Shown here in pieces: positions 6,197 through 58,301 of a DNA stretch of 64,000 nt (positions are counted from its first letter, which is position 1; every line of letters begins with the position of its first letter). This DNA is from Candidatus Poriferisocius sp. GTDB taxonomy: Bacteria > Actinomycetota > Acidimicrobiia > Acidimicrobiales > Bin134. The stretch is taken from NCBI GenBank assembly GCA_965208545.1, contig OZ242341.1, positions 3,492,288 through 3,556,287 on the forward strand, in the 5' to 3' direction. The position numbers were made by a program, and so were the translations under genes. The notes under the pieces are model-generated. The model worked only from the letters and a program-made list of their open reading frames with translations, was not told the origin of the DNA and searched no databases.

Positions 6197-6292
6197 TGGC
6201 GGAGGTGGACGGGAATCGAACCCGCCGGACGGGGATCGCCCGTCCCACCCGCTTTGAAGGCGGGGGAGCCCACCAGGTACTCAGACACCTCC
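6197..6292 (-). tRNA. selC: tRNA-Sec (anticodon UCA), with encoded CCA
   Basis: The reverse complement reads GGAGGTG..CCCGC-CTTCAAA-GCGGG..GGACGGG-CGATC-CCCGTCC..GCGGG-TTCGATT-CCCGT-C-CACCTCC-G-CCA. It has a 7-bp acceptor stem and a 7-nt anticodon loop with U33 and anticodon TCA, the same CTTCAAA loop as E. coli selC. It also has a 7-bp long variable arm, a canonical TTCGATT T-loop and a total length of 96 nt. Confidence 0.75.
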
Positions 6293-6341: not shown

Positions 6342-7898
6342 CTAGCCCACTACCGCCGCGCCCTCCGGCTCGCCCACGCCGCTCATCAGCAGGCCCACCT
6401 GCTCTACGGTGGCATCGGCCCGGTCTACTCGGCCCATCACCGATCCCTCATACATAACTACCAGTCGGTCCGACAGGGCCATCACTTCGTCTAGATCTTC
6501 ACTGATCAACAAGATGGCCTTGCCTTGCGTACGCTGGGTGATCAGCTGCTCGTGGATGTACTCGGCTGCGCCGATGTCGATGCCCCGGGTGGGCTGGGCC
6601 ACCAGCAGCATCTCGGCATTGCCGCTGAACTCCCGAGCGATCACCACCTTCTGGATGTTGCCCCCCGACAGCTTGCGGGTGAGGGTGCTGGTGTTTGGCG
6701 TGCGAATCGAATAATCGCTCACCAGTTGCTTGCCGCGGGTCTCGATGGAGCTAAGGCTCAACAGTCCGTACCGCGCATAAGGCTGCTGGTCGTAGTCCGC
6801 CAAGATCAGGTTCTCGGCCACAGTGAAGTCGCCGATGCTGCCGTACTTCATGCGCTCTTCGGGTACATAGGCCAGGCCCATCGACCGCACCTGCTTGGGA
6901 GTGGGGGTTTTCACCGGATGGCCGTCGATAGAGACTTCGCCCGACTCGATCTCCCGCAGCCCGACGATGGCCTCGGCCAATTCTCGCTGCCCGTTGCCCG
7001 ACACTCCTACGATGCCCACGATCTCACCGGCCCGCACGTCGATGTTCACATCGCGTACCGCCAGCTCCTCCCGGTCGCCCCTAACCCGGAGATTCTTCAC
7101 CTCCAGTTTGGGATCGCCCGGTTCCTGTTCGGCAAGGGTGCGGGTGAATTCCACCGGGCGTCCCACCATCATCATGGCCAGCGACTCCCTGCTGGATTCT
7201 GCCGGGGTGGTGCGCCCCGAGACCTTGCCGTCACGCAGCACCGTGATCTCGTCAGAGATCTCCATCACCTCGTTCAGCTTGTGGGAGATGAACACCAGTC
7301 CTCTTCCATCGGAGCTGAGCTGTCGGAGGGTGACGAATAAATCGGAAACCTCGGGCGGGGTCAGCACCGCGGTGGGCTCGTCCAGCACCAGCAGTCTCAC
7401 GTTTCGGTACAACGCCTTAACGATCTCGGCCCGCTGCCGCTCTCCGACCGCCATCTGCCAGATATAGGCATCGGGATCGACGTGCAGGCCGAACTCCTCA
7501 GATACTTCTCGGATGCGTCTACGAATCGGCTGGAGGTTGGTCAGACTGAGCGGAGTGCCCAGCCCCAGGGCCACGTTCTCGGCCACGGTCAGGGTGTCCA
7601 CCAACATGAAATGCTGGTGAATCATGCCGATGCCGGTCTGAATCGCCACTGAAGGTGAATCAATGTTCACCGGCGTGCCGTCGAAGGCGATCGATCCCTC
7701 GTCGGGCTGGTAGAGCCCATAGAGGATCTTCACCAGCGTGCTCTTGCCCGCTCCGTTCTCCCCCAGAAGGGTATGAACCTGACCCGGCAGCACCGTGAAG
7801 TCAACGTCTTCGTTGGCCACCACGCCGGGGAAGCGCTTGGTAATACCGCGCATCTCCAGCATCGGTGCTGGCCTCGGCGCTGCCGAGTCAGTATTCAT
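6342..7898 (-). CDS. ABC transporter ATP-binding protein, duplicated-ATPase type (BMP/sugar-nucleoside class)
   Basis: Two nucleotide-binding domains are present. Walker A motifs are GENGAGKST and GVSGNGQRE. Signature motifs are LAVGERQRAEI and LSGGNIQKVVIA. Walker B motifs are LLVLDEPT and LLVAQPTRGID. Confidence 0.9.
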   Translation of the reverse strand: MNTDSAAPRPAPMLEMRGITKRFPGVVANEDVDFTVLPGQVHTLLGENGAGKSTLVKILYGLYQPDEGSIAFDGTPVNIDSPSVAIQTGIGMIHQHFMLVDTLTVAENVALGLGTPLSLTNLQPIRRRIREVSEEFGLHVDPDAYIWQMAVGERQRAEIVKALYRNVRLLVLDEPTAVLTPPEVSDLFVTLRQLSSDGRGLVFISHKLNEVMEISDEITVLRDGKVSGRTTPAESSRESLAMMMVGRPVEFTRTLAEQEPGDPKLEVKNLRVRGDREELAVRDVNIDVRAGEIVGIVGVSGNGQRELAEAIVGLREIESGEVSIDGHPVKTPTPKQVRSMGLAYVPEERMKYGSIGDFTVAENLILADYDQQPYARYGLLSLSSIETRGKQLVSDYSIRTPNTSTLTRKLSGGNIQKVVIAREFSGNAEMLLVAQPTRGIDIGAAEYIHEQLITQRTQGKAILLISEDLDEVMALSDRLVVMYEGSVMGRVDRADATVEQVGLLMSGVGEPEGAAVVG

Positions 7899-7919: not shown

Positions 7920-9998
7920 TTACTGCCCAGTGGAGATTGACCCGTCGGACAGGCCGGCGATCGTCGCCTCGGCTGAGGCCAGCACGTCGGCGGGGATGTC
8001 CATGGCGTCGTTGAACTGGATCTCCAGTCCTCCGCCATCGAAGGTCATGATGAAGGTAGTGCCACCCAAGGTTCCGCCCTTCACCTGGTCGACCACCTCA
8101 GAGAGGATGACCTCCCAGCGGTACACCTGCGAGGCCACCACGATGTCATCGCCAAGTGCGGTCTGGTTGGCCTGGGTGCCGAACCACAGCACGCCGTTCT
8201 CCTGAGCCACTCCGGTGGCGCCCACCACCATCTGGGCCGAACCGGTCAGCACGTCGGCGCCGGCGGAGATGTGCGATTGGGCAGCTTCCGCGGCCAGCGC
8301 TACGTCGGCAAATGAACCGGTGTAGACGATGTTGACCTCGACGTCGGGATTCTGCGCCGTGGCACCGGCGGCGAACCCGTCGACATAGAGCTTGGCGTCG
8401 CCCACCTCTATCGGGCCGATCACGCCGATCACGTTGCTCTCTGTGAGCTGAGCGGCCACTACGCCGTTGACGTAGCCACCGAGATCGGAGCGAACCGAGT
8501 AGGAGTTCACGTTGGGAAGACCGAAGGTGTCGACCGCGGTCCCCCAAGCGAACGATACATCGGGGAAGTCCGGAGCGATCTCCTGGAGCGGGCCGCCGTA
8601 CTGGGAGCCGTGGGCGATGACCAGGTCGTAGCCATCTTCGGCATAGCCCCGAATTGCTGCGCCCGCATCTTCCACGATGAATGTGCCGTCGGTGATGGCA
8701 AATTCGCTGATGTCCCCAGAAGCCAATAGGGCATTCACCGCGTCGAACATGCTCTGGGTGAATGCCAGGTCGTTGCTCGCGCTCGGTGCCACTACCGCCA
8801 CACGGAACGGTGCCGGCGGTGCCGGCGGGGGCGGGGGCGTGTAACTGGTCGCGGCCCGGGCTTCGGCGAGCCATGCGTCGACGGTGTCGCGGTTGTCGGC
8901 GATCCACTCGGCGGCGTGGCGGTTGACATCAGCGGTGGTGTTCTCACCGCCGGTGTCGTAGCGCGCGTTCTGCAGTGCGATGTCAACCACGCTGATCTTC
9001 ACCTGCTCCAGCAGCGTCGCCGCCGCCGGGTTCTCGACAAGGAAGTCGTTGTTGGCCGTCACCTGGATGTCAGCGGTAATGAGGAGGTTGCACGGATCAT
9101 CTGTGCAGACATCGGTGCCGAGCAGGGTGGGCGCACCCCCGTCTATCGACAGCCACATGGCCTGGTCACCAGGCCCGATGTGGTTCGTATAGAAGCTCGG
9201 GCTCCACGTGTACGCGATGAACGGGGTGCCGCTGCCAGCGCGGTCGACTGCGTCGGCGAAAGTGGCGTCGTAGCCGCCCACCTCGACCTGCTGGACCCTG
9301 CCGGTCCAACCCTTGTCTTCAATCAGGCCCGCAATGAACAGGTTGCATCCCCAACCGTCGGGGCACCCATAAATCTGGAGCACCCCATCACCGGGCTCAA
9401 TGTCGGCCGCCTCGTACAGCTCGAACAGATCCTCGTCACCCACGAGCTGATCAAGAGTTCTGATGCCGTGCTCTTCCACCAGCGACTTGTTGGTCAACAA
9501 GCCCTCGATGCCGCCGCGCTCAGCCTCAAGGCCCACCTTCGACACGTGATCGCTCACCAAAGAGCCATCGGGCATCTCGCCCGCAATGAACGGGTCGTGG
9601 TTCGGATACCAAGAATTGGCCCAGAAATCGAACTCGCGCTCAGCCATAGCCACGTACGCGTTCGAAGGCGCAAGCTCAATATCCGCAGGCTCGCTCACGT
9701 CATAGCCCAGCTCCTCCAACAGATGGTGATAGATAGCCGCCTGGAAATAGCCAGTGCTCCAGTTCGCCCGAGCCATCGTCACACTGACACCCTCACCAGG
9801 CGTCATATTCACCTCATCAGCCGCCGGAGCATCATCAGCCGCCGGAGCATCCTCCGCCGGGGCGTCATCAGCCGCCGGAGCATCCTCCGCCGGCGCAGCC
9901 CCCGGCTCGTCATCGTCATCATTGCCACAAGCAGCAACAACCAGCCCGAAGACCAGAAAAATAGCTAGCAAAACTCTCCAAAGGTTTCGCTCTCTCAT
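7920..9998 (-). CDS. Chimeric lipoprotein: OpuAC/ProX-type betaine-binding domain fused by a poly-Pro linker to a BMP-family (PnrA-like) binding domain
   Basis: Signal peptide plus lipobox LVVAAC-GNDDDD. An Ala/Asp/Pro linker follows, then a 331-aa OpuAC-like unit (ARANWSTGYFQAAIYHHLLEELGY...FWANSWYPNH). Next is the linker TSYTPPPPPAPPAP, then a BMP-like domain (FRVAVVAPSASNDLAFTQSM...GVIGPIEVGDAKLYVDGF...). Confidence 0.85.
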   Translation of the reverse strand: MRERNLWRVLLAIFLVFGLVVAACGNDDDDEPGAAPAEDAPAADDAPAEDAPAADDAPAADEVNMTPGEGVSVTMARANWSTGYFQAAIYHHLLEELGYDVSEPADIELAPSNAYVAMAEREFDFWANSWYPNHDPFIAGEMPDGSLVSDHVSKVGLEAERGGIEGLLTNKSLVEEHGIRTLDQLVGDEDLFELYEAADIEPGDGVLQIYGCPDGWGCNLFIAGLIEDKGWTGRVQQVEVGGYDATFADAVDRAGSGTPFIAYTWSPSFYTNHIGPGDQAMWLSIDGGAPTLLGTDVCTDDPCNLLITADIQVTANNDFLVENPAAATLLEQVKISVVDIALQNARYDTGGENTTADVNRHAAEWIADNRDTVDAWLAEARAATSYTPPPPPAPPAPFRVAVVAPSASNDLAFTQSMFDAVNALLASGDISEFAITDGTFIVEDAGAAIRGYAEDGYDLVIAHGSQYGGPLQEIAPDFPDVSFAWGTAVDTFGLPNVNSYSVRSDLGGYVNGVVAAQLTESNVIGVIGPIEVGDAKLYVDGFAAGATAQNPDVEVNIVYTGSFADVALAAEAAQSHISAGADVLTGSAQMVVGATGVAQENGVLWFGTQANQTALGDDIVVASQVYRWEVILSEVVDQVKGGTLGGTTFIMTFDGGGLEIQFNDAMDIPADVLASAEATIAGLSDGSISTGQ
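8851..9943. repeat. Copy A of the ~1-kb identical repeat (OpuAC-domain unit plus N-terminal linker)
   Basis: 8851-9815 matches 11372-12336 at offset 2521. 8857-9943 matches 12371-13457 at offset 3514. No nucleotide differences were noticed, and sense and antisense ORF translations are identical. Confidence 0.9.
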
Positions 9999-10206: not shown

Positions 10207-11235
10207 ATGACGATCGCTTCCGAACAAGCTGCCGCCCGCACCTCCTCCCGGTCAGACGAGCAGCGGCTCATGGACGGGATCTACTGGTATGGCATTCCGA
10301 CGCTGTTCCGCTGCGAGTACGACCCCGACCCCCAAAACGCCGACATCGCCCTTGTGGGCGTGCCCCATAGCACCGGCAACGGCACGACCCAGCGCGACCA
10401 ACATCTTGGCCCCCGGGCCGTGCGGGACGTCTCAGCCATCGGCAGGCGGGTCCACGGCCAGTTCGGCATCGATCCGTGGGAGATGTGCCGCATCAACGAT
10501 CTGGGCGATGTGCCGTTGTCGGAGGGCAACAACAACGAGCGCTCCATCGAGATGATCACCGATTTCTACCGGTCGATCGACGAAGCCGGGGCGCGGCCGG
10601 TGTCCATCGGCGGCGACCATTCCATCACCGGGGGCATCCTGCAGGCCATCGGTGGCCATGAGGCCAACCTCACCGGAGGCGAGCGGGCCTGCCTGCTGCA
10701 CTTCGACGCCCACACCGACGCCTTTCACAACATCCCCCACTTCATGGGAGCCATCAAGTCGGCCGCCCACTGGGCCAGCTATCTGGTTACCGACGGCCAC
10801 GTCGACGCCGAGCACAGCGTGCAGGTCGGCATTCGGGGCAACACTCGCAGCCTCGACTGGCTCGAGCCCAGCTACGCGCTCGGTTACGAGGTGATCAAGA
10901 AGTCCGACTACGACCAAATGGGCGCCGAGAGGGTGATCGAGACCATCCACGAACGCATCGGCGACCGGCCGGTGTACATCACATTCGATCTCGACTGCCT
11001 CGACCCGACGGTGGCACCGGGCGTGGCCAATATCGAGGCCGGCATCGACGGCTTCGGGATGGACCAGGCCATGGAGCTCATCCGCTCGATGCGGGGCCGC
11101 AACGTGATCGGCGGCGACGTGGTATGCCTGATGCCGACGGTGGACTCACCCAACCAGATCACCAGCTACCGCTCGATGTCGGTGATGTTTGAGATCCTCA
11201 GCCTGATTGCCGACCGAAACTTCAACCGTCCTTAA
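10207..11235 (+). CDS. Ureohydrolase (arginase/agmatinase/guanidino-acid hydrolase family)
   Basis: Mn-binding motifs are LHFDAHTDA, GGDHSITGGILQA and ITFDLDCLDP, with GGDVVCLMP near the C-terminus. Confidence 0.85.
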   Translation: MTIASEQAAARTSSRSDEQRLMDGIYWYGIPTLFRCEYDPDPQNADIALVGVPHSTGNGTTQRDQHLGPRAVRDVSAIGRRVHGQFGIDPWEMCRINDLGDVPLSEGNNNERSIEMITDFYRSIDEAGARPVSIGGDHSITGGILQAIGGHEANLTGGERACLLHFDAHTDAFHNIPHFMGAIKSAAHWASYLVTDGHVDAEHSVQVGIRGNTRSLDWLEPSYALGYEVIKKSDYDQMGAERVIETIHERIGDRPVYITFDLDCLDPTVAPGVANIEAGIDGFGMDQAMELIRSMRGRNVIGGDVVCLMPTVDSPNQITSYRSMSVMFEILSLIADRNFNRP

Positions 11236-11364: not shown

Positions 11365-13524
11365 TCAGCCTGCGGCCCGGGCTTCGGCGAGCCATGCGTC
11401 GACGGTGTCGCGGTTGTCGGCGATCCACTCGGCGGCGTGGCGGTTGACATCAGCGGTGGTGTTCTCACCGCCGGTGTCGTAGCGCGCGTTCTGCAGTGCG
11501 ATGTCAACCACGCTGATCTTCACCTGCTCCAGCAGCGTCGCCGCCGCCGGGTTCTCGACAAGGAAGTCGTTGTTGGCCGTCACCTGGATGTCAGCGGTAA
11601 TGAGGAGGTTGCACGGATCATCTGTGCAGACATCGGTGCCGAGCAGGGTGGGCGCACCCCCGTCTATCGACAGCCACATGGCCTGGTCACCAGGCCCGAT
11701 GTGGTTCGTATAGAAGCTCGGGCTCCACGTGTACGCGATGAACGGGGTGCCGCTGCCAGCGCGGTCGACTGCGTCGGCGAAAGTGGCGTCGTAGCCGCCC
11801 ACCTCGACCTGCTGGACCCTGCCGGTCCAACCCTTGTCTTCAATCAGGCCCGCAATGAACAGGTTGCATCCCCAACCGTCGGGGCACCCATAAATCTGGA
11901 GCACCCCATCACCGGGCTCAATGTCGGCCGCCTCGTACAGCTCGAACAGATCCTCGTCACCCACGAGCTGATCAAGAGTTCTGATGCCGTGCTCTTCCAC
12001 CAGCGACTTGTTGGTCAACAAGCCCTCGATGCCGCCGCGCTCAGCCTCAAGGCCCACCTTCGACACGTGATCGCTCACCAAAGAGCCATCGGGCATCTCG
12101 CCCGCAATGAACGGGTCGTGGTTCGGATACCAAGAATTGGCCCAGAAATCGAACTCGCGCTCAGCCATAGCCACGTACGCGTTCGAAGGCGCAAGCTCAA
12201 TATCCGCAGGCTCGCTCACGTCATAGCCCAGCTCCTCCAACAGATGGTGATAGATAGCCGCCTGGAAATAGCCAGTGCTCCAGTTCGCCCGAGCCATCGT
12301 CACACTGACACCCTCACCAGGCGTCATATTCACCTCGACAGCCTCGGGAGGCACCCAGGGTCCGGCGACGCGGGCTTCGGCGAGCCATGCGTCGACGGTG
12401 TCGCGGTTGTCGGCGATCCACTCGGCGGCGTGGCGGTTGACATCAGCGGTGGTGTTCTCACCGCCGGTGTCGTAGCGCGCGTTCTGCAGTGCGATGTCAA
12501 CCACGCTGATCTTCACCTGCTCCAGCAGCGTCGCCGCCGCCGGGTTCTCGACAAGGAAGTCGTTGTTGGCCGTCACCTGGATGTCAGCGGTAATGAGGAG
12601 GTTGCACGGATCATCTGTGCAGACATCGGTGCCGAGCAGGGTGGGCGCACCCCCGTCTATCGACAGCCACATGGCCTGGTCACCAGGCCCGATGTGGTTC
12701 GTATAGAAGCTCGGGCTCCACGTGTACGCGATGAACGGGGTGCCGCTGCCAGCGCGGTCGACTGCGTCGGCGAAAGTGGCGTCGTAGCCGCCCACCTCGA
12801 CCTGCTGGACCCTGCCGGTCCAACCCTTGTCTTCAATCAGGCCCGCAATGAACAGGTTGCATCCCCAACCGTCGGGGCACCCATAAATCTGGAGCACCCC
12901 ATCACCGGGCTCAATGTCGGCCGCCTCGTACAGCTCGAACAGATCCTCGTCACCCACGAGCTGATCAAGAGTTCTGATGCCGTGCTCTTCCACCAGCGAC
13001 TTGTTGGTCAACAAGCCCTCGATGCCGCCGCGCTCAGCCTCAAGGCCCACCTTCGACACGTGATCGCTCACCAAAGAGCCATCGGGCATCTCGCCCGCAA
13101 TGAACGGGTCGTGGTTCGGATACCAAGAATTGGCCCAGAAATCGAACTCGCGCTCAGCCATAGCCACGTACGCGTTCGAAGGCGCAAGCTCAATATCCGC
13201 AGGCTCGCTCACGTCATAGCCCAGCTCCTCCAACAGATGGTGATAGATAGCCGCCTGGAAATAGCCAGTGCTCCAGTTCGCCCGAGCCATCGTCACACTG
13301 ACACCCTCACCAGGCGTCATATTCACCTCATCAGCCGCCGGAGCATCATCAGCCGCCGGAGCATCCTCCGCCGGGGCGTCATCAGCCGCCGGAGCATCCT
13401 CCGCCGGCGCAGCCCCCGGCTCGTCATCGTCATCATTGCCACAAGCAGCAACAACCAAAGCAATTGCTGCAAACAGTGCAAACCAAACCTTCCAATGCTT
13501 CTTCATAAGCATTTTTCCCTCCAT
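11365..13524 (-). CDS. Lipoprotein with two tandem, identical OpuAC/ProX-type betaine-binding domains
   Basis: Signal peptide plus lipobox LVVAAC-GNDDDD. The 331-aa unit EVNMTPGEGVSVTMARANW...DAWLAEAR is then present twice in frame, with a 993-bp period. Confidence 0.85.
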   Translation of the reverse strand: MEGKMLMKKHWKVWFALFAAIALVVAACGNDDDDEPGAAPAEDAPAADDAPAEDAPAADDAPAADEVNMTPGEGVSVTMARANWSTGYFQAAIYHHLLEELGYDVSEPADIELAPSNAYVAMAEREFDFWANSWYPNHDPFIAGEMPDGSLVSDHVSKVGLEAERGGIEGLLTNKSLVEEHGIRTLDQLVGDEDLFELYEAADIEPGDGVLQIYGCPDGWGCNLFIAGLIEDKGWTGRVQQVEVGGYDATFADAVDRAGSGTPFIAYTWSPSFYTNHIGPGDQAMWLSIDGGAPTLLGTDVCTDDPCNLLITADIQVTANNDFLVENPAAATLLEQVKISVVDIALQNARYDTGGENTTADVNRHAAEWIADNRDTVDAWLAEARVAGPWVPPEAVEVNMTPGEGVSVTMARANWSTGYFQAAIYHHLLEELGYDVSEPADIELAPSNAYVAMAEREFDFWANSWYPNHDPFIAGEMPDGSLVSDHVSKVGLEAERGGIEGLLTNKSLVEEHGIRTLDQLVGDEDLFELYEAADIEPGDGVLQIYGCPDGWGCNLFIAGLIEDKGWTGRVQQVEVGGYDATFADAVDRAGSGTPFIAYTWSPSFYTNHIGPGDQAMWLSIDGGAPTLLGTDVCTDDPCNLLITADIQVTANNDFLVENPAAATLLEQVKISVVDIALQNARYDTGGENTTADVNRHAAEWIADNRDTVDAWLAEARAAG
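11372..12336. repeat. Copy B of the identical repeat (C-terminal domain of the tandem SBP)
   Basis: See copy A. The junction with copy C is the 34-bp unique segment 12337-12370. Confidence 0.9.
12371..13457. repeat. Copy C of the identical repeat (N-terminal domain plus linker of the tandem SBP)
   Basis: See copy A. Identity with copy A extends through the Ala/Asp/Pro linker and lipobox and stops inside the signal peptide. Confidence 0.9.
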
Positions 13525-13614: not shown

Positions 13615-15936
13615 TTACCCGATGTCGGCCGTTGCTCCTTCCGGCTCATCGACAGAGACATACACCTGTGATCGACCGAATTTCGTCAGCACACCGGCCG
13701 TGCTCGCCATGAGGAGGAACCCCGCGACCAGGCAAATGAACGCTCCTGCGCCGCTAGCGAACTTGAGATCGGCCACCCTGAGCAGCGACGCGATCCACGC
13801 CGACGCCACAACCATCAGACTGACGCCGACGCCTGCAACCACTGCGTTCCAGCGCCGTCGCCTTTGCTCATTGCCACCGAAGACCCCGGCAGCAGGTAGC
13901 ACACAGGCGATGCCGACGATGCCGAAGGCGATAGCGAGATATCCATACTTGCTGCTGTCGCCAGCAAAGCCGTCAATGACGATCTTCTCGGTCCGTTGAG
14001 CCTCGCTGTACAGTGCGATGATCTCTTGAGCTATACGAGCTTCGACTGCTGGATCATCGGTATTCTCTGCTTGCTGCTCCAGAGCCGAAACTTGTGCCTG
14101 AAGCTCTGGTGAGACAACGGACTCGACGCGCTGATCGAAGGACCATCCCGAGAACCCAGCTATGACAATCAGCGCCGCAACAAGAGCAACCACACCGATT
14201 TGACGGTACGAAACGCCAGCTCTCAGCGGGGTGCGGGCTGCATAGGGTGCCTCCCTAAGCCAGGCCAGTGCGCCCAGGGTCGCTACCACCCCGCCCACAA
14301 TGGCGACCCAAGGACCGACTCCCATGCTATGTGTGACGTTGGCCGATGCTGCCGGCGCCCAGACATAGGCGATCGCCGCAGCCAGGGACCCAACGGCAAG
14401 CACTGCGACACCATTTGACCCAAACAGGCGAATATCTCCGCCTGGTCGTCTCAGATTGGTCACAACCGCAGCAAGGATCAACAAGGCGAAGCCGAGCACC
14501 ATGATGCCGTAGAAGGATCCACCGGTTGCATCCAAACCACGGAAGCTACGGCCTGCTAGAGGATTGGAAAGCAGCGCGATCTCATCCCCAATTTCTGCAA
14601 TGACCGCGAGTGTCTCTTCGTCCGTCACCCCCTCAGCCCCCGCCGCGACGATCACGGCATTTATCTGGGCATCGAGCACGGCAATCTCTTGGGCATGTTC
14701 GACGGGCGGGTCGACACTCGCTTCCTGAAGCTCGACCATCCCAGGGGACCTCACGGGGTCAACCTCGACGTACTCGTATCGCCCGGTGTCAATCAACCTG
14801 GCATAACCGGAAATCCTTCCCGAGTCACTCCCCCATGGCAAGAACACGGCAACAACAGCAACGAGTGCGCCGGCGGCGACGATTGCCAAGAAGCGGCGCT
14901 CGGCGGCCGACAGTGGAGCCGGGTGGCTTCTCGTCTTGGCCACGACGCCGATCGACGATGCCTGAGGAAGCAGTGCCTCGGGATCGCGACGATGGGCCCA
15001 GGCCCGGCGGATGCGTGTTAAGAGGTTTTGGCCATCACTCTCCTCAGTTTGAGAGATGCGGTCGAGCACCACTGCAACCATGAACAGAGCCAGACCGCTT
15101 GAAGCGGCTAGAGCAACGTCTAGTGCCTGCACCGCCCGAAAAACCTGCAAGCCCAATCCGCCCGCACCCATGATGGCCGCGATGCCCAGCATGGAGATAG
15201 ACAAAAGCAACGTCTGGTTTAGTCCGGTCATGATCGCGGGACGCGCCAGTGGAAGCTGGACATCTAGCAGCACGCGCCACTCGGGGGCCCCGTAGGCCCG
15301 ACTGGCCTCCACTACATCCGCGGGAACCTGTCTGACTCCAAGGTTGGTGAGACGAATTAGCGGCGGGAGGGCAAACACCATGGTGACCATCGTGGCCGGT
15401 TCGGTACCGATACCGAAGAAGAAGATGACCGGCAGCATGTACACAAACGCATGGACAACCTGCATCGCGTCGAGCACAGGTCGCACGGCATTCCACACTC
15501 CATCGAATCGGCCACAAAGGACACCGAGGGGAATGCCGATAAGGGCGCAGAGTGCGACGGCGACAATGATCATGCCCACTGTCAGCGCTGTGTCATCCCA
15601 GTATTCAATGCCGAGCAGTCCGCAGCCAGCCAACGCCAACGCGACGAACCCGCCGACCTTCACGTTGCGGGCCAGCGTGCCGATCACGAAAAAGATGAGG
15701 CAAACCGCGATCCACGGCATGTCGGTGATCTCCCACCAAGGATGGTGATCTGGGCTATCGACAAAGTTGCGGAACAGGAAAGTAAATGGCCACTCGATGA
15801 TGTCGAGCAGCCAGCCGAGGTTGAGGTCGATCCAGTTGACCATCTGCTTGACCCATTCGCCGAACGGAATCGTCCACTGGTCGAGGACCTCGTTGTCGGC
15901 AATACCGGGGGACTCCGACTGGGCCAGCAGGCTCAC
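13615..15936 (-). CDS. proW: ProW/OpuAB-type ABC permease with a ~440-aa C-terminal multi-TM extension
   Basis: The permease core is ...GIPLGVLCGRFDGVWNAVRPVLDAMQVVHAFVYMLPVIFFFGIG...EASRAYGAPEWRVLLDVQLPLARPAIMTG.... The likely GTG start at 15936 overlaps the proV stop (GTGA). The ORF-track start at 16044 lies inside proV. Confidence 0.8.
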   Translation of the reverse strand: MSLLAQSESPGIADNEVLDQWTIPFGEWVKQMVNWIDLNLGWLLDIIEWPFTFLFRNFVDSPDHHPWWEITDMPWIAVCLIFFVIGTLARNVKVGGFVALALAGCGLLGIEYWDDTALTVGMIIVAVALCALIGIPLGVLCGRFDGVWNAVRPVLDAMQVVHAFVYMLPVIFFFGIGTEPATMVTMVFALPPLIRLTNLGVRQVPADVVEASRAYGAPEWRVLLDVQLPLARPAIMTGLNQTLLLSISMLGIAAIMGAGGLGLQVFRAVQALDVALAASSGLALFMVAVVLDRISQTEESDGQNLLTRIRRAWAHRRDPEALLPQASSIGVVAKTRSHPAPLSAAERRFLAIVAAGALVAVVAVFLPWGSDSGRISGYARLIDTGRYEYVEVDPVRSPGMVELQEASVDPPVEHAQEIAVLDAQINAVIVAAGAEGVTDEETLAVIAEIGDEIALLSNPLAGRSFRGLDATGGSFYGIMVLGFALLILAAVVTNLRRPGGDIRLFGSNGVAVLAVGSLAAAIAYVWAPAASANVTHSMGVGPWVAIVGGVVATLGALAWLREAPYAARTPLRAGVSYRQIGVVALVAALIVIAGFSGWSFDQRVESVVSPELQAQVSALEQQAENTDDPAVEARIAQEIIALYSEAQRTEKIVIDGFAGDSSKYGYLAIAFGIVGIACVLPAAGVFGGNEQRRRRWNAVVAGVGVSLMVVASAWIASLLRVADLKFASGAGAFICLVAGFLLMASTAGVLTKFGRSQVYVSVDEPEGATADIG

Positions 15937-17177
15937 AGGAATACCTCTCTCTCGAAACCATCGATCAGGTTCTCGACCCGGCCCATTTCTTCCATGATGT
16001 GACGGGGGTCGAGATTCCCGACCAGCACACCCGACTCGTCGCACACCGCGATTGAAAGGCCGCGGCCAGCGGCGGCGTATACCTCGTTGAGGCGGTCGTC
16101 GGGGCCGCAGCGCTCGAAGTCGGTGCGAAGCGCACGAGCCAGATCAGTGGTACCCATGCTGGCAGCCCGGGCCGCGTCTTCGACTGTCAACAGATGGGTG
16201 GGCGCACCTGCGGCATCTAGCACGAACGCACCGATGCGGTCACCCATAGCACTGAGGGCCTCGGCGATGGTGGCACTGGCGGCAACGGGTGCCGGCACTT
16301 GCATGACCTCGTGTACCTGGATGACGCGGCCTTGGTCGACATCCTGCACAAACTCAGCCACATACCCGGTGGCCGGCTCAGTGAGGATCTCCTCGGGCGT
16401 GCCGATCTGCACGACGGCACCGTCCTTCATGATGCACACCCGATCGCCAATGCGCAATGCTTCGTTGAGGTCGTGGGTGATGAACAGGATGGTTTTGTGA
16501 AGCTCGCTCTGGATCTCCAGAAGCTCGTCCTGCATCTGACGGCGGATCAACGGGTCGAGAGCACTGAAGGCTTCGTCCATCAGCAGTATTTCAGGGTCCG
16601 AGGCCAGCGCTCGGGCCAGGCCGACCCGCTGCTGCATCCCGCCGGAGAGCTCGGCCGGCCTGTTCTGCGAATAGGCGTCTAGGCCGACCAACGCCAAAGC
16701 CCGCATGGCCGATTCGTTGCGGACGGCCTTGTCCACGCCCTGGACTTTGAGGCCGTAGCTCACGTTGTCGATGACGTTGCGGTGCGGGAACAGTGCGAAG
16801 TGCTGGAACACCATCCCCATCTGGCTCCTGCGGAAAGCCTGAAGCTCTGAACCTTCGAGAGACTGCACGTCGATGCCCTCGACTGTGACGGTGCCCGCAG
16901 TGATGTCGTGAAGCTTGTTGACGGTGCGAATGGCGGTGGACTTGCCCGATCCGGACAAGCCCATTACGACGAAAATCTCGCCCCTGGGCACCGAGAAAGA
17001 CACGTTGTCGAGGCCGACCACATGTCCGGTCTCGGCCTGAACTTCGTCTTTGCCCATCCCTGAGCTGGCCAGTTCAAAAGCTCGGCCGCCGGGCTGAGGA
17101 CCGAAAATCTTGTAGACGCCGTCCAGGACGATGATGTCATCGCCCACCTGTGCCATAGGACTCCTCCCGCCAGCCAA
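15933..17177 (-). CDS. proV: Glycine betaine/proline-type ABC transporter ATP-binding protein with C-terminal CBS region
   Basis: Walker A GLSGSGKST, signature LSGGMQQRVGLARAL, Walker B ILLMDEAFSALD. The ~130-aa C-terminal tail is typical of ProV/OpuAA. Confidence 0.9.
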   Translation of the reverse strand: MAGGRSPMAQVGDDIIVLDGVYKIFGPQPGGRAFELASSGMGKDEVQAETGHVVGLDNVSFSVPRGEIFVVMGLSGSGKSTAIRTVNKLHDITAGTVTVEGIDVQSLEGSELQAFRRSQMGMVFQHFALFPHRNVIDNVSYGLKVQGVDKAVRNESAMRALALVGLDAYSQNRPAELSGGMQQRVGLARALASDPEILLMDEAFSALDPLIRRQMQDELLEIQSELHKTILFITHDLNEALRIGDRVCIMKDGAVVQIGTPEEILTEPATGYVAEFVQDVDQGRVIQVHEVMQVPAPVAASATIAEALSAMGDRIGAFVLDAAGAPTHLLTVEDAARAASMGTTDLARALRTDFERCGPDDRLNEVYAAAGRGLSIAVCDESGVLVGNLDPRHIMEEMGRVENLIDGFEREVFL

Positions 17178-18141: not shown

Positions 18142-20415
18142 CTATTGGTGGCGCATGGCGTGGGCCATCTCGGCGTCGAAATCAAATGGGGGCAGCGGGC
18201 CGGTCTCGATGACCAATGATGCCAGGCCCTCGGGGGCTTCGAACGGCGGTTGGTAGTCGTCGCACACCGGGAAAGGGCGGCCATAGCCCACGGTTAGAAA
18301 GGCTCCATCGGGGGACCAGCTGGTAGGCAGGGGTACCGGTTGCGCCCCCAGGCCGATCTCAACTCCGTCAGCAGTGAGCGTCACCTTGAACGAGCCATCC
18401 TCGGTTGGGGCCAACTCAGCACCCACCAACCGGGCACCAGATGGGATGGGGGCGACGGCCCGGCGCTCCCGCCCGTGTACCACCGCCACCCAACGGAGCT
18501 GGCCATCGGCCAAGAACATCGCCCAGCCGGAGATCCAATCGCCCTGCTCACAGATGATGCCAACGGCACCCTCGGGCAAGCCTTTGGGGAAAGCGGCCAC
18601 AGCTCGGTAGCCTCCGAACTGCAACGGACCAGTGGTTTCATGCACCTTGTCGCCGGGGACCAGTTCGTATCGCGATCGCAGCGACATCCAGGGGGCGTAC
18701 ATGTGGGCGATGCGGTTGTTCTGCGTGTCATCGAGGGGGAGCACCCCGTTGCGGTCGGCCTCGGCGTCCCACAATTCGATCATTTCGGAAAGCTTTTCGG
18801 GGTGCTGGTCGGCCAGATTCCGAGACTCGATGGGATCGGCCAGGGTATCGAACAGCTCCCACTCGTCTTCGGCGAAGTCATGGCTGCCCACGATGGCGTC
18901 TCTATCAGCGGCGGTGAACTGGTTGACGTGGTTGGTGACCGCCTTCCAGCCCTGGTGGTACATGGCCCGGCTGCCCCAACACTCGTAGTACTGGCTGGTG
19001 CGGGCGGCGCCGGGATCATCGTCGACGACGATTCGCCGCATGCTGGCGCCATCGAATGACATCTGCTCCACCCCGTCGAACATTGTCGGGGGCTGTACCC
19101 CGGCCAAATCCAGAATCGTGGGCATCACATCAGTCACGTGGGAATACTGATGGCGAAGTTCGCCCGCCGTGGCGATACCGGCTGGCCACGACAAGATCAA
19201 GGGGTCGCGCACTCCCCCTTCAAATGTGTACCGCTTCCACCGGCGGAAGGGGGTGTTGCCGGCCAGGGCCCACCCCCAGGGATAGTGCCCATAGGAGCGG
19301 ATCCCGCCGAGGTCGTCGTAGTGGGACAGCTCCAGCTCCAGGTCGTCTTCTCCCTCGCTGATGTAGTGGCGGATCTGGTTCCAGGTGCCGTCGGGCCCGC
19401 CCTCGGGCGAGCTGCCATTGTCGGAGATCAAGGCCACTACGGTGTTTTCGGCCTCGCCGGTCGACTCCAAATGGTCGAGCACTCGGCCGATGTGGTGGTC
19501 GGCGTGGCTCACGGTTCCGGCGTACACCTCCATCATGCGGGCATACAGCCGTTGGCGGACGGGGTCGACATTGTCCCAGGGCTCGACCCATTCGGGTCGC
19601 TCGGATAGTGCGACGTCGCCAGGAATGATTCCCATCTCCTTCTGACGGGCCAGCACCTCTTCTCGCCACACGTCCCAACCTTGGTCGAACTGCCCGGCAT
19701 AGCGATCGATCCACTCCAGGGGTGCATGGTGGGGGGCGTGGGGTGTGCCGGTGGCGTACCACATCATGAACGGCCGATTGGGGTCGGCCAGTCGAAGGTT
19801 GCGCAGGTAGTTGATGGCTTGGTCGGCAAGGTCGCCGTCGAGGTGGTAACCCTCCTCTGGGGTGGCGGGTGGTTCGATATAGGTCTGGTCGCGAATGAGC
19901 TTGGGGGTCCACTGGCTGGTCTCCGCGTCTATGAACCCGTAGTAGTGGTCGAACCCGACTCCGGTGGGCCACGTGTTATATGGCCCGGCGGCCCGCTGGT
20001 CCCGGGGCGTGAGGTGCCACTTCCCCACCGCGAAGGTGGCCCAACCCTCGGCTGCCAGGTATTGCGCCAACGTCCCAGCAGAATCGGGGATCTGTCCGTT
20101 GTAGCCGGGAAAGTTGACGGGTAGGTCGGTGACCATCCCAATCCCCACCCGATGGTGATTGCGCCCGGTGAGCAAGCAGGCACGGGTGGGAGAGCAGATC
20201 GCGGTGGTGTGGAAATTGGTGAACCGCAGACCCCGGCCAGCCAGGCGGTCGAGGTTGGGCGTGTCGATGTCGGAGCCATAACACCCGAGCTGAGCGAACC
20301 CGAGGTCGTCCAACACGATGACCATCACATTGGGGGCTTCGGGATCGTAGGGCCGAGGCACTGGCGGTGACGTTGATTCGGCCAGGGTGAGCCCGATGCG
20401 GTGCTCGGAGGACAC
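18142..20415 (-). CDS. Arylsulfatase (Cys-type, AtsA-like, ~757 aa), paralog 1
   Basis: Formylglycine motif CSPTRACLLTGRNHH and N-terminal VIVLDDLGFAQLGCYGS. GTG start. A 2-nt gap separates it from paralog 2. Confidence 0.9.
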   Translation of the reverse strand: MSSEHRIGLTLAESTSPPVPRPYDPEAPNVMVIVLDDLGFAQLGCYGSDIDTPNLDRLAGRGLRFTNFHTTAICSPTRACLLTGRNHHRVGIGMVTDLPVNFPGYNGQIPDSAGTLAQYLAAEGWATFAVGKWHLTPRDQRAAGPYNTWPTGVGFDHYYGFIDAETSQWTPKLIRDQTYIEPPATPEEGYHLDGDLADQAINYLRNLRLADPNRPFMMWYATGTPHAPHHAPLEWIDRYAGQFDQGWDVWREEVLARQKEMGIIPGDVALSERPEWVEPWDNVDPVRQRLYARMMEVYAGTVSHADHHIGRVLDHLESTGEAENTVVALISDNGSSPEGGPDGTWNQIRHYISEGEDDLELELSHYDDLGGIRSYGHYPWGWALAGNTPFRRWKRYTFEGGVRDPLILSWPAGIATAGELRHQYSHVTDVMPTILDLAGVQPPTMFDGVEQMSFDGASMRRIVVDDDPGAARTSQYYECWGSRAMYHQGWKAVTNHVNQFTAADRDAIVGSHDFAEDEWELFDTLADPIESRNLADQHPEKLSEMIELWDAEADRNGVLPLDDTQNNRIAHMYAPWMSLRSRYELVPGDKVHETTGPLQFGGYRAVAAFPKGLPEGAVGIICEQGDWISGWAMFLADGQLRWVAVVHGRERRAVAPIPSGARLVGAELAPTEDGSFKVTLTADGVEIGLGAQPVPLPTSWSPDGAFLTVGYGRPFPVCDDYQPPFEAPEGLASLVIETGPLPPFDFDAEMAHAMRHQ

Positions 20416-20417
20416 GG

Positions 20418-22691
20418 CTACTGGTGGCGCATGGCGTGGGCCATCTCGGCGTCGAAATCGAATGGGGGCAGCGGTCCTGTCTCAATGACCAATGAGGCCA
20501 AGCCCCCAGGGGCTTCGAACGGGGGCTGGTAGTCGTCGCACACCGGAAAGGGACGGCCAAATCCCACGGTAAGGAAGGCTCCGTCAGGAGCCCAGGTGGT
20601 GGGAAGGGGCACCGGCTCGGCACCCTGGCCGATTTCGGCTTCATCGGCGGTGAGCGTCATCGTGAATAGACCGTCTTCGGTCGGGGCCAGCTCGGTGCCA
20701 ACAAAGCGCGCCCCAACCGGGACAGGGGCGATTACCCGGTATTCCCTCCCGTGCACCACCGCCACCCAGCGGAGCTCGCCGTCAGCCAGAAACATCACCC
20801 AACCGGAGATCCAATCGCCCTGCTCGCAGATGATGCCAGCAGCACCCTGGGGCAAGCCGCCAGGAAATGCGGCCACGGCCCGGTAGCCGCCGAATTGCAA
20901 CGGTCCTGAGGCTTCATGCACCTGGTCGCCCGGGACCAGTTCGTAACGAGACCGCAGCGACATCCAGGGGGCGTACATGTGGGCGATCCGGTTGACCGCG
21001 GTGTCGTCAATGGGTAGCACCCCATTGCGGTCAGCCTCGGCGTCCCACAACTCCACCAGATCGGCCAGCTTCTCAGGGTGTTGGTCGGCCAGGTTGTGCG
21101 ATTCGGTTGGATCGGCCTCGGTGTCGAACAGCTCCCACTCGTCTTCGGCGAAGTCGTGGCTGCCCACGATGGCGTCTCGCTCGGCTGCGGTGAGCTGGTT
21201 GACGTGATTGGTGACCGCCTTCCAACCCTGGTGGTACATGGCTCGGCTGCCCCAGCACTCGTAGTACTGGCTGGTGCGGTGGTCGGGGGAGCCAGCGTTG
21301 TCGAGCACGGTCCGCATGCTGACGCCGTCGAACGACATCTGCTCCACCCCGCCGAACACGGTCGGGGGCTGCACTCCGGCCAGATCCAGAATCGTGGGCA
21401 TCACGTCGGTCACGTGGCAGTACTGGTGGCGCAACTCTCCCCGAGCAGTCATCCCGGCCGGCCACGACAAGATCAGGGGGTCGCGCACTCCGCCCTCGAA
21501 GGTGTACCGCTTCCACCGGCGAAAGGGGGTGTTGCCGGCCAGCGCCCATCCCCAGGGATAGTGCCCGGAGGAACGGAACCCGCCAAGGTCGTCTAAGTGG
21601 GACAACTCCAACTCCAGGTCGTCGGGATCGTCGCTGATGACGTGACGGTTGTGGTTCCAGCTTCCGTTGGGACCCCCTTCGGCCGAGGCACCGTTATCGG
21701 AGATGAGAGCGACCACAGTGTTGTCGGCATCACCCGATTGCTCGAGATAGTCCAGAATTCGGCCGATGTGGTGGTCGGCGTGACTCAAGAACCCGGCGTA
21801 CACCTCCATCATGCGGGCATACAGACGCTGGCGCTCGGGGTCGATCTCATCCCAAGGCTCGACCCACTCGGGTCGAGCCGACAACCCCACATCGGCGGCG
21901 ATGACCCCCATTTCCTTTTGGCGGATCAGCACCCCTTCTCGCCACACGTCCCAACCGCGGTCGAATTGCCCGGCATAGCGATCGATCCACTCCGGGGGGG
22001 CTTGGTGGGGAGCGTGGGGGGCACCGGTGGCGTACCACAGCATGAACGGCCGATCGGGGTCGGCCAGCCGCAGGTTGCGCATGTAGTTGATGGCTTGGTC
22101 GGCCAGGTCGCCTTCGACGTGGTATCCCTCCTCCGGGGTGGCCGGTGGCTCGATATACGTCTTGTCGCGGATGAGCTGGGGGGTCCATTGATTGGTCAGC
22201 CCGTTGAGGAACCCGTAGTAATGATCGAACCCAACCCCGGTGGGCCAGGTGTGATACGGCCCGGCGGCCCGCTGGTCGCGGGGGGTGAGGTGCCACTTCC
22301 CCACCGCGAAGGTGGCCCAGCCCTCAGCTCCCAGGTAGTGGGCCAACGTCCCGGCAGAATCGGGGATCTGCCCGTTATAGCCGGGGAAGTTGATGGGCAT
22401 GTCGGTGAGCATGCCCACCCCGACCCGATGGTGATTGCGCCCGGTGAGCAGGCAGGCCCGGGTCGGCGAGCAAACCGCGGTGGTGTGGAAGTTGGTGAAC
22501 CGCAACCCCCGGGCCGCTAGGCGGTCCAAGTTGGGGGTGTCGATGTCGGAGCCATAACACCCCAGTTGAGAGAAACCGAGGTCGTCCATCACGATGACCA
22601 GCACGTTGGGGGCGTGGGGGTCGTAGGGCCGCGGCACCGGCGGCGAGGTCGATTCGGCCAGGGTGAGCCCGATGCGGTGCTCGGAGGACAT
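20418..22691 (-). CDS. Arylsulfatase, paralog 2
   Basis: Same motifs as paralog 1 (CSPTRACLLTGRNHH), and collinear with paralogs 1 and 3 along the full length. Confidence 0.9.
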   Translation of the reverse strand: MSSEHRIGLTLAESTSPPVPRPYDPHAPNVLVIVMDDLGFSQLGCYGSDIDTPNLDRLAARGLRFTNFHTTAVCSPTRACLLTGRNHHRVGVGMLTDMPINFPGYNGQIPDSAGTLAHYLGAEGWATFAVGKWHLTPRDQRAAGPYHTWPTGVGFDHYYGFLNGLTNQWTPQLIRDKTYIEPPATPEEGYHVEGDLADQAINYMRNLRLADPDRPFMLWYATGAPHAPHQAPPEWIDRYAGQFDRGWDVWREGVLIRQKEMGVIAADVGLSARPEWVEPWDEIDPERQRLYARMMEVYAGFLSHADHHIGRILDYLEQSGDADNTVVALISDNGASAEGGPNGSWNHNRHVISDDPDDLELELSHLDDLGGFRSSGHYPWGWALAGNTPFRRWKRYTFEGGVRDPLILSWPAGMTARGELRHQYCHVTDVMPTILDLAGVQPPTVFGGVEQMSFDGVSMRTVLDNAGSPDHRTSQYYECWGSRAMYHQGWKAVTNHVNQLTAAERDAIVGSHDFAEDEWELFDTEADPTESHNLADQHPEKLADLVELWDAEADRNGVLPIDDTAVNRIAHMYAPWMSLRSRYELVPGDQVHEASGPLQFGGYRAVAAFPGGLPQGAAGIICEQGDWISGWVMFLADGELRWVAVVHGREYRVIAPVPVGARFVGTELAPTEDGLFTMTLTADEAEIGQGAEPVPLPTTWAPDGAFLTVGFGRPFPVCDDYQPPFEAPGGLASLVIETGPLPPFDFDAEMAHAMRHQ

Positions 22692-22693
22692 GG

Positions 22694-24964: not shown

Positions 24965-24986
24965 GGGACCAGAAGATAGGCGATGG

Positions 24987-26651: not shown

Positions 26652-26686
26652 GGTGGTTTGGGAGTGATTCGGGTCGGGTATGGAAC

Positions 26687-27940: not shown

Positions 27941-27963
27941 GTATGAAACGTTAGTGCAACCCC

Positions 27964-29052: not shown

Positions 29053-29075
29053 GGCTGCGGAACCCTAGGAGGGCC

Positions 29076-29129
29076 GTGTCAGTTTGTCAAGTTAGCCTAA
29101 CAATTACCGTATGGATGACAAAATGACAC
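29076..29129. promoter_or_regulatory. Operator candidates upstream of the iron-type SBP: a 14-bp inverted repeat pair and a DtxR/IdeR-like core
   Basis: GTGTCAGTTTGTCA (29076-29089) matches the reverse complement of TGACAAAATGACAC (29116-29129) at 13/14 positions. Between them, GTTAGCCTAAC (29091-29101) matches the central GTTAG-S-CTAAC of the IdeR/DtxR iron-box consensus, and 13/19 positions match over the full box. Confidence 0.4.
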
Positions 29130-43164: not shown

Positions 43165-43166
43165 CA

Positions 43167-58270: not shown

Positions 58271-58301
58271 TTATCCACAACTTATACACATATGTGGATA
58301 C
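58271..58301. promoter_or_regulatory. DnaA-box cluster upstream of dnaA
   Basis: TTATCCACA (58271-58279, perfect E. coli-type box), TTATACACA (58282-58290, one mismatch) and an inverted box TGTGGATAC (58293-58301), followed by AT-rich CATTATTATTTTGG. Confidence 0.7.

Follow-up and report, generated by a model that had tools for sequence, protein, structure and literature searches.

Solute-binding proteins (SBPs) are usually regarded as one protein with one fold serving one transporter. The window (the whole 64,000-nucleotide stretch of DNA analysed here) holds a gene in which a single lipoprotein reading frame carries two SBP folds, joined at the point where an exact DNA repeat ends. We asked whether such a gene is genuine, how the join came about, and what the two halves might do. 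Our answer, to which we assign a probability of roughly 0.68 for the explanation as a whole (working, origin and maintenance included), is that it encodes a real, conserved, lipid-anchored two-headed SBP. The features on which the argument draws are as follows, in window coordinates.

6342..7898 (-): tandem-ABC (CUT2/BMP-type) ATPase, from profiles; presumed motor for head 2
7920..9998 (-): fusion gene, 692-aa lipoprotein, ProX/OpuAC then BMP/PnrA (ORF, Pfam PF04069/PF02608, full-length homologues 63-88% identical)
7923..8807 (-): head 2, BMP/PnrA-type, aa 398-692 (Pfam, AF2 model, structure matches, dN/dS)
8808..8849 (-): Pro-rich inter-domain linker TSYTPPPPPAPPAP, aa 384-397 (translation, homologue alignment)
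8850..9800 (-): head 1, ProX/OpuAC-type, aa 67-383 (ProX 1r9l alignment, Foldseek, invariant Trp/Cys)
9801..9926 (-): acidic Asp/Ala/Pro tether, aa 25-66 (translation; 15/18-nt periodic repeats, repeat family D4)
9927..9998 (-): signal peptide with lipobox, MRERNLWRVLLAIFLVFGLVVAAC, Cys24 the predicted lipidation site (translation)
8851..9943 (-): repeat copy A, lipobox to last OpuAC codon (exact DNA identity with copies B and C)
11372..12336 (-): repeat copy B, in the neighbouring gene, covering its second OpuAC unit (exact DNA identity)
12371..13457 (-): repeat copy C, in the neighbouring gene, covering its lipobox, tether and first OpuAC unit (exact DNA identity)
11365..13524 (-): tandem OpuAC-OpuAC lipoprotein, 719 aa, candidate gene-conversion donor/partner (ORF, Pfam, ProX model 403.6 bits)
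13615..16044 (-): 809-aa permease of the ProW/OpuAB type, its C-terminus extended by a long multi-TM region, from profiles; presumed translocon for head 1
15933..17177 (-): ProV/OpuAA-type ATPase with CBS domain, from profiles

The fusion protein reads, in order, lipobox, acidic tether, full ProX/OpuAC domain, linker and full BMP/PnrA domain. The reading frame, Pfam and structure matches bear out the original prediction of a single lipoprotein with two unrelated, complete SBP folds, and the translation confirms the lipobox and acidic tether that it had placed ahead of the OpuAC domain. The N-terminus, MRERNLWR-VLLAIFLVFGLV-VAAC, has the make-up of a lipoprotein signal as read from the translation, with a positively charged n-region, a hydrophobic h-region and a lipobox (V-A-A-C, aa 21-24) that fits [LVI][ASTVI][GAS]C. 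This signal is conserved across the homologue alignment, and GGAGG lies 8 nt upstream of the ATG. Head 1 matched Pfam OpuAC (PF04069) over aa 72-367, with an E value of 3e-28 and 99.6 bits (cut-off 21.2), spanning model positions 2-256 of 257. It aligned with residues 4-307 of E. coli ProX (1r9l, E 2.4e-32), which was also its top Foldseek match. Residues W130/W216/W265 correspond to the Trp box W65/W140/W188 of ProX, and Cys212/Cys218 to the C136/C142 pair that forms the ProX disulfide; the Trp box and Cys residues were invariant in 22/22 fusions. Against the ProX equivalog model NF008334 (cut-off 215) the two-unit neighbour scored 403.6 bits in two stretches and the fusion 203.3 bits, just under the cut-off, and head 1 is therefore ProX-like and not to be called an equivalog.

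Head 2 matched Pfam Bmp (PF02608) over aa 399-661 (E 1.5e-37, 129.7 bits, cut-off 24.1; model positions 3-269 of 301). The C-terminal half thus belongs to the family first proposed for it. An AF2 model of the Bmp domain built from 72 sequences (pLDDT 91.3, pTM 0.90) showed a complete fold, which Foldseek matched at TM 0.87-0.88 to AtzT, PnrA and Brucella BMP (6pii, 6yag, 3s99). Identity to these solved structures is only 20-26%, so that the ligand is not assignable from them, and a score of 82 bits against the NCBIfam 'B6' equivalog (cut-off 400) means that head 2 is not that equivalog. In a full-length AF2 run with 22 fusion sequences the Bmp half reached a pLDDT of only 20-50 because it is ~95% identical in all rows, and inter-domain contacts were not readable. 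The tandem-ABC ATPase lies 21 nt downstream of the fusion gene and adjoins Bmp in 80/80 related loci. The Bmp half and this ATPase are under strong purifying selection, with dN/dS of 0.09 and 0.10 in fusion genomes and 0.08 and 0.11 in unfused relatives.

Exact DNA comparison upheld the claim that the repeat ends at the fusion point. Positions 8851-9815 equal 11372-12336 over 965 nt, 8857-9943 equal 12371-13457 over 1087 nt, and 11378-12336 equal 12371-13329 over 959 nt. The presence of three identical copies of ~1 kb is not chance, and the figure of 100% may be a little too high if multi-mapping reads were used to polish the source assembly. Identity starts in the lipobox codons and stops at 8851, the last OpuAC codon; the neighbouring ORF 11365-13524(-) consists of two tandem OpuAC units with a period of 993 nt, or 331 aa. 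Within a genome OpuAC units shared 84-100% identity, against 43-98% between genomes; their number varied from 1 to 5 between genomes, and a tree of 41 units grouped them by genome and not by position. In 11 genomes the intra-genome repeat, at identities of 85 to 100%, ended 18-69 nt before the Bmp motif RVAVV and always in the linker, and the window fusion gene is itself a mosaic that switches at the junction. OpuAC units evolve in concert by gene conversion within a genome, and since conversion between them can go no further than their shared homology, the repeat stops at the junction. Recombination swapped the OpuAC cassette; it did not make the fusion. Over time, gene conversion would have made head 1 uniform with the other OpuAC units of its genome and replaced it from them again and again, and this would account for a 100%-identical 1.1-kb repeat that ends exactly at the domain junction. 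The same process would keep head 1 matched to its own genome's OpuAB permease type. OpuAC identity to relatives rises and falls with OpuAB identity (97/95% for locus L003, 83/76% for L004 and 67/69% for L009), and a type-3 OpuAB (44%) accompanies a type-3 OpuAC (46%).

Two simpler accounts of the junction had to be weighed against this reading. Three 100%-identical ~1 kb repeats within 6 kb are a classic setting for misassembly, and a BMP gene might have been joined to an OpuAC repeat through shared k-mers, as the original prediction had allowed for the junction at about 8851. The short-read contigs of relatives do break at the repeat (L019-L024), and the exact fusion protein is not on record elsewhere, although an exact-sequence look-up without a match is uninformative either way. 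A search for the two-domain architecture, however, found the OpuAC-Bmp order in 21 protein clusters at 63-88% identity. Among sponge-associated Acidimicrobiia (Candidatus Poriferisocius), 17 or more species-level genomes have the full-length fusion, and 7 further genomes have contigs cut at the repeat. These genomes come from independent projects and from HiFi-type, MEGAHIT and SPAdes assemblies, and they include complete 3.3-4.1 Mb chromosomes. The same in-frame junction appears in them in diverged sequence, the linker and both flanks are conserved, and the signal-peptide region of the fusion is unlike that of the neighbouring OpuAC-OpuAC gene. Recurrence across genomes and assemblers in effect refutes an artefact, to which we give almost no weight. 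It was also suggested that recombination between repeat copies had probably given rise to the chimera, which would make it recent and private to this genome. Direct repeats recombine readily, OpuAC unit counts do vary, and the repeat end and fusion point coincide exactly, but that same coincidence of boundaries was seen again in the 11 genomes described above. Lineages sharing the fusion have OpuAC halves 43-50% identical and Bmp halves 90-99% identical, and close relatives carry no unfused Bmp gene at this locus. The fusion predates the split of the species-level genomes that share it (at least 17), among which OpuAC halves differ by up to 57%, so the architecture is far older than the identical repeat, and a recent origin is very improbable. 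Judging from these comparisons, the fusion arose long ago and has been conserved among sponge-associated Acidimicrobiia; it is not a recent private chimera. It sits in a recurring synteny of sulfatase-rhomboid-OpuAA-OpuAB-[0-2 tandem genes]-fusion-ATPase.

The surroundings of unfused Bmp genes point to how the join may have arisen. The order perm1-perm2-Bmp(-Bmp)-ATPase was found in >50 loci, some of them in close relatives whose downstream sigma70/NAD-synthase genes are the same, and gene order shows an ancestral operon permease-permease-Bmp-ATPase that is split in fusion genomes. The two PF02653 permease genes of the BMP system are absent from the 64-kb window, and none lies near the fusion at any fusion locus. 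In three related fusion genomes the permease pair lies 24-37 kb from the fusion on the opposite strand, 90-96% identical to the unfused orthologue. A general loss of the BMP permeases from fusion genomes was ruled out by a perm2 search and locus look-ups, which show both kept in these three. Homology of the fusion genomes' permease locus to unfused loci stops at the perm2 stop codon, with no Bmp 5' remnant found beside perm2, and a type-3 genome has two sites, the first reading perm1-perm2-OpuAA-OpuAB and the second OpuAC::Bmp-ATPase. Because of the missing remnant and of this type-3 arrangement, we rejected one simple inversion that broke within Bmp; more than one event is needed. A neighbour-joining (NJ) tree of Bmp plus ATPase, built as a test of single origin, did not place the fusion genomes in a strictly monophyletic group, and for that reason does not decide between a single origin, several origins and later recombination. 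A rearrangement would have split the ancestral operon, and the Bmp-ATPase part would have landed behind an OpuAC lipoprotein gene; the exact order of events is one that we infer. Unfused Bmp orthologues have their own signal peptide (MKPRL...AGCGNDDD), and their Pro-rich N-terminal tethers are similar to the inter-domain linker of the fusion. The Bmp head of the fusion starts at aa 398, behind the OpuAC head, without a signal peptide of its own. It would have dropped that peptide and come to rely on the OpuAC protein for both signal peptide and lipid anchor.

We propose that the protein would work as follows. After export and lipidation at Cys24, the acidic tether would hold head 1, whose intact Trp box would take trimethylammonium or a related head group. 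Head 1 would feed the OpuA-type importer (OpuAA, OpuAB) encoded just upstream; the neighbouring sulfatases hint at a sulfated quaternary amine as its ligand. The Pro-rich linker would bear head 2, of the purine/nucleoside-binding structural group, which would feed a PF02653-type permease pair powered by the tandem ATPase. Each head most probably works with an ABC importer of its own, the ligand of each head and its translocon being predicted from sequence. The original prediction had placed two different ABC systems on either side of the gene, and this held in part: an OpuA-type system lies upstream and a BMP-type ATPase downstream, but the BMP side consists of the ATPase only, its permeases presumably lying outside the window. 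A ureohydrolase gene in the opposite orientation sits between the fusion and the OpuA operon, and co-transcription of the two is therefore not possible in this window.

Two further explanations accept the gene as real and differ in what it does. Only one head might still be a transport receptor, either because the OpuAC part mainly supplies signal peptide, anchor and promoter to Bmp, or because the Bmp head, uncoupled from its permeases, has been repurposed for sensing, scaffolding or another non-transport role. The missing Bmp signal peptide, the split operon and the lack of nearby permease genes at every fusion locus would fit, as would the presence of up to four other identical OpuAC heads in these genomes and the reuse of SBP domains as parts of kinases and channels within the data set (P0381, P0486). 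Bmp and ATPase, however, are under purifying selection of the same strength as in unfused genomes, the permease pair is kept in the three fusion genomes mentioned, and head 1 retains its Trp box in every fusion and is kept matched to the OpuAB type; we regard this explanation as unlikely. Alternatively, the two importers might form a functional unit for two related substrates, by co-regulation or as a physical supercomplex, with the fusion selected for the coupling. Components of both systems are interleaved in the two loci of the type-3 genome, and Bmp and OpuAC have been joined independently elsewhere in other orders (P0389, P0458, P0433). OpuAC is also fused to Peripla_BP_6, SBP_bac_3, SBP_bac_5 and NMT1, however, so its pairing with Bmp is not specific, and rearrangements alone, with no selection, could account for the gene order; selected coupling seems to us quite improbable. 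We therefore retain the two-headed SBP with a separate importer for each head.

Head 1 aligns over the whole ProX chain and shares its Trp65/Trp140/Trp188 box and Cys136-Cys142, and, as in E. coli ProU, ProV-like (CBS domain) and ProW-like genes are present, here upstream of the fusion. Unlike ProX, head 1 is lipid-anchored, exists in three identical copies and is joined to a second SBP, and unlike ProW the window permease has additional TM helices in an extension of ~450 aa. Head 2 has the complete fold (TM 0.85-0.88) of the BMP/PnrA lipoproteins (T. pallidum and S. pneumoniae PnrA, Borrelia BmpD, Brucella 3s99, AtzT 6pi5), and its tandem-ABC ATPase follows as in BMP operons, where unfused orthologues stand in the perm-perm-Bmp-ATPase order. 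In contrast to those lipoproteins it has no signal peptide of its own, sits behind another SBP and has its permease genes detached. In GlnPQ (Lactococcus/Streptococcus) and OpuA, the substrate-binding domains (SBDs) all come from one family, are joined covalently to the transmembrane domain (TMD) and supply one translocon (PMC8025302, PMC11065425). The fusion resembles these in carrying several binding domains per polypeptide, tethered near the translocon, and the neighbouring OpuAC-OpuAC gene is a direct analogue of such a homo-family tandem. The fusion is a separate lipoprotein gene, however, with two Pfam families and two translocon types implied, and it is an analogue of GlnPQ-type tandem-SBD importers, not a member. 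Mixed multi-SBP chains also occur in metagenomic Acidimicrobiia (P0458, Bmp-SBP_bac_3-OpuAC; P0433, Peripla_BP_6-OpuAC-Bmp-SBP_bac_5; P0490, OpuAC-Peripla_BP_6). These likewise string different SBP families on one secreted chain but differ from the fusion in domain order and partners and fall in separate 50%-identity clusters. A literature search on Poriferisocius, mixed SBP fusions and SBP gene conversion returned only the GlnPQ/OpuA tandem-SBD papers, and no paper on mixed multi-SBP chains of Acidimicrobiia was found.

A conserved lipoprotein with heads from two SBP clusters (F and B) breaks the rule of one protein, one fold and one transporter clade-wide in sponge symbionts. Public records label the fusion only as 'BMP family', and its predicted betaine-type function has therefore been overlooked; the identical repeats, for their part, break short-read assemblies at the locus. 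We suggest, tentatively and with well under even odds, that mixed 'beads-on-a-string' SBP chains may be a systematic strategy of Acidimicrobiia, in which 2-4 different SBDs would share one signal peptide and lipid anchor and the heads would be exchangeable cassettes matched to their translocon by gene conversion. OpuAC::Bmp would be the best-sampled case, and the fusion may also couple two different ABC importers physically or regulatorily. The locus offers a natural system for asking how a tethered head finds its translocon, how a binding domain and its permease co-adapt, here by gene conversion with visible cassette replacement, and how operon rearrangements create multidomain proteins.

The ORF at 7920-9998(-) encodes a protein of 692 aa, with the signal peptide, tether and linker read from the translation and the two domains located by Pfam profiles:

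up to Cys24, signal peptide and lipobox VAAC
aa 25-66, Asp/Ala/Pro tether
aa 72-367, OpuAC domain (model positions 2-256 of 257, E 3e-28)
aa 384-397, linker TSYTPPPPPAPPAP
aa 399-661, Bmp domain (model positions 3-269 of 301, E 1.5e-37)

Next to it, ORF 11365-13524(-) codes for a lipoprotein made up of two tandem OpuAC units with a 993-nt (331-aa) period. Exact DNA identity joins the two genes at 8851-9815 = 11372-12336 and at 8857-9943 = 12371-13457, and recurs inside the OpuAC-OpuAC gene (11378-12336 = 12371-13329). The identity sets in within the lipobox codons and ends in the last OpuAC codon. The original prediction of one lipoprotein carrying two unrelated folds, with a repeat ending at 8851, was therefore borne out as written by the ORF, by the OpuAC match of the N-terminal and the Bmp match of the C-terminal half, and by the exact DNA identity. 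The acidic tether is coded by imperfect 15/18-nt tandem repeats (9796-9932, 13310-13446; units such as DDAPAE and DAPAAD). Its length and composition differ widely among orthologues, and unfused Bmp proteins include (EEAPM)n runs.

The genes around the fusion, in order of transcription of the minus strand, are as follows:

18142-25039 (-), three paralogous sulfatases
after the sulfatases (-), rhomboid/DUF6576 protein
15933-17177 (-), ProV-like ATPase with a CBS domain (OpuAA)
13615-16044 (-), ProW-like permease, 809 aa (OpuAB)
11365-13524 (-), OpuAC-OpuAC gene
10207-11235 (+), agmatinase/ureohydrolase-family gene
7920-9998 (-), fusion gene
6342-7898 (-), tandem-ABC ATPase of sugar/BMP (CUT2) type, 21 nt past the fusion gene
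6197-6292 (-), tRNA-SeC, directly after the ATPase

A tblastn search of the whole 64 kb found no PF02653-type permease. In OpuAB a normal permease domain (~aa 55-350) is followed by a ~450-aa extension with about eight more predicted TM helices and two soluble loops, which matched nothing in Pfam except, weakly, DUF6350, and which is kept in relatives (773-777 aa; 694 aa in L089). The sulfatases (757, 757 and 781 aa, in tandem) share 84-85% DNA identity and are only weakly similar to choline-sulfatase and arylsulfatase models; an FMO-like and two P450 genes (24987-30350) follow them, and relatives keep this block ahead of their OpuA genes. The agmatinase-family gene moves around inside the locus, a 94%-identical copy lying between fusion and ATPase in L004. 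Past tRNA-SeC, in the stretch down to position 1, are LRV-repeat, MoxR-AAA and DUF2201/VWA genes where relatives have sigma70 and NAD-synthase genes, which points to another rearrangement or to an insertion at the tRNA. A low-GC patch (~52%) at 38-40 kb adjoins type III restriction-like helicase and DNA methylase genes (40204-45725). Since yidC (55961-57202) and dnaA (58234-59712) are present, the window lies near the chromosome origin.

The junction is not an assembly artefact. When a single genome was scanned for each species, the complete fusion occurred in 17 genomes (L003-L018, L030), complete 3.3-4.1 Mb chromosomes as well as short-read MEGAHIT/SPAdes bins, and seven more contigs were cut within the OpuAC repeat or at the contig end (L019-L024, L026). 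All of them belong to Acidimicrobiia associated with sponges, many under the name Candidatus Poriferisocius, and the synteny sulfatase(s)-rhomboid-OpuAA-OpuAB-[0, 1 or 2 OpuAC genes]-fusion-ATPase-sigma70(-)-NAD synthase(-) is conserved. Six short-read MAG contigs (L019-L024) start in the last 20-55 OpuAC codons, just ahead of the Bmp domain. Because assemblies break at the OpuAC repeat, short-read bins can easily lack the fusion or hold it cut short. Public records name it just 'BMP family ABC transporter substrate-binding protein'.

A protein search returned the OpuAC-Bmp order in 21 clusters at full-length coverage and 63-88% identity, beside 35 OpuAC-OpuAC and 63 Bmp-Bmp tandems. The fusion is thus not recent, and the proposal that recombination between repeat copies had created it did not hold: the repeat stops at the junction because the homology between its copies goes no further. 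Among 50%-identity representatives in a protein library, the OpuAC-Bmp order formed a single cluster, alongside Bmp-OpuAC (P0389), Bmp-SBP_bac_3-OpuAC (P0458; 37 members, marine Acidimicrobiales MAGs), the 1470-aa four-family chain Peripla_BP_6-OpuAC-Bmp-SBP_bac_5 (P0433) and OpuAC-Peripla_BP_6 (P0490, P0448). P0477 and P0368 are further mixed multi-SBP chains from public metagenomes; OmpA-Bmp fusions (P0375, P0376, P0384, P0396), a Ser/Thr kinase-Peripla_BP_4-OpuAC protein (P0381) and an OpuAC-OpuAC-iGluR-like channel (P0486) were also seen. Same-family tandem SBDs joined to the permease are described for GlnPQ (PMC8025302) and OpuA (PMC11065425); no description of a mixed chain like OpuAC::Bmp was found in the searchable literature.

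The two halves have separate histories. Across the aligned fusions identity stays at 90-99% in the Bmp half, and the OpuAC halves are of several types, mutually only 43-50% identical. Pairwise dN/dS in 18 fusion genomes was 0.06 for OpuAA and 0.28 for the OpuAC head (dN 0.29). OpuAC units within a genome share 84-100%, mostly 94-100%, protein identity (11 genomes), and in a tree of 41 units they cluster by genome, not by position. The repeat shared by fusion and upstream gene has 85-100% DNA identity (1174 nt at 100% in L007) and ends 18-69 nt ahead of the Bmp motif RVAVV in every genome compared. The window gene is itself a mosaic that switches at the junction: its OpuAC half is 94-100% identical in nucleotides to L003 and 62-85% to L009, and its Bmp+ATPase half 82-90% and 90-98%, respectively. 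The OpuAC half is thus in concerted evolution with cassette replacement.

The order perm1-perm2-Bmp(-Bmp)-ATPase, with two PF02653 permease genes, occurs in >50 other Acidimicrobiia loci, including Ilumatobacter, Candidatus Poriferisodalis and unfused Poriferisocius. L025, L028, L029 and L032, close relatives without the fusion, share the downstream sigma70/NAD-synthase genes, and their Bmp carries a signal peptide of its own, with a Pro/Glu-rich tether ending PFRVAVV. No fusion locus has permeases within 10 kb of the fusion. In three fusion genomes the BMP permeases are not lost; searching with perm2 and inspecting the loci showed both genes:

3,740,805-bp chromosome, perm1-perm2 (L083) ~37 kb from the fusion (L011)
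JAPOSH010000055.1, perm1-perm2 (L085) ~24 kb from the fusion (L012)
1,099,865-bp contig, perm1-perm2 (L089) ~33 kb from the fusion (L090)

The retained pair lies at its ancestral place beside Tad-pilus genes. Since it is distant from the fusion-ATPase pair and on the opposite strand, and similarity to unfused loci ends at the perm2 stop codon, the operon was broken up by at least one large rearrangement, in the simplest case by inversion, and Bmp came to follow an OpuAC gene in frame. In the type-3 genome OpuAA-OpuAB lies immediately downstream of perm2 (L089 11059-14363) and the sulfatase-rhomboid-fusion-ATPase block ~33 kb away, so that parts of two ABC importers are interleaved across two loci; the BMP ATPase stands with the binding domains of either system, ~33 kb from the permeases. 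In an NJ tree the fusion genomes do not form one clean clade.

Head 1 aligns with E. coli ProX (1r9l) residues 4-307 (E 2.4e-32); the ProX betaine box W65/W140/W188 corresponds to W130/W216/W265 and the Cys136-Cys142 pair to C212 and C218, all invariant in 22 fusion proteins. Because it scored 203 bits, slightly below the 215 cut-off of the NCBIfam equivalog, head 1 is classed as ProX-like, not ProX. The full-length model was good for head 1 only, with ProX as best PDB match, then ChoX, OpuAC, TmoX and DmpX. Predicted alone with 72 homologues, head 2 (pLDDT 91.3, pTM 0.90) superposes on AtzT, S. pneumoniae PnrA, Brucella BMP, Lbp and BmpD (TM 0.86-0.88, 20-26% identity). From sequence and models, neither domain is truncated and both look functional. 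OpuAC and OpuAB identities move together across genomes (97/95%, 83/76%, 67/69%, and 46% with type-3 OpuAB at 44%), which is the strongest evidence so far for head 1 serving its genome's OpuA translocon. Pairwise dN/dS for Bmp and the ATPase is 0.09 and 0.10 in the 18 fusion genomes, the same as in unfused relatives (0.08 and 0.11). Three other readings are less probable: that one head is only a passenger, that Bmp acts outside transport, or that selection favours coupling of the two importers.

In the reading we prefer, of two working heads, one lipid anchor and tether would display two independent receptors. The direct repeats would also account for the varying number of OpuAC heads, from 1 to 5 per genome. 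Head 1 would deliver a quaternary-ammonium type solute to an OpuA-type importer. Head 2, whose structural neighbours bind purines and nucleosides, would deliver a BMP-type ligand to a pair of PF02653 permeases powered by the neighbouring ATPase, and Bmp would obtain its export, anchoring and expression signals from the fusion.
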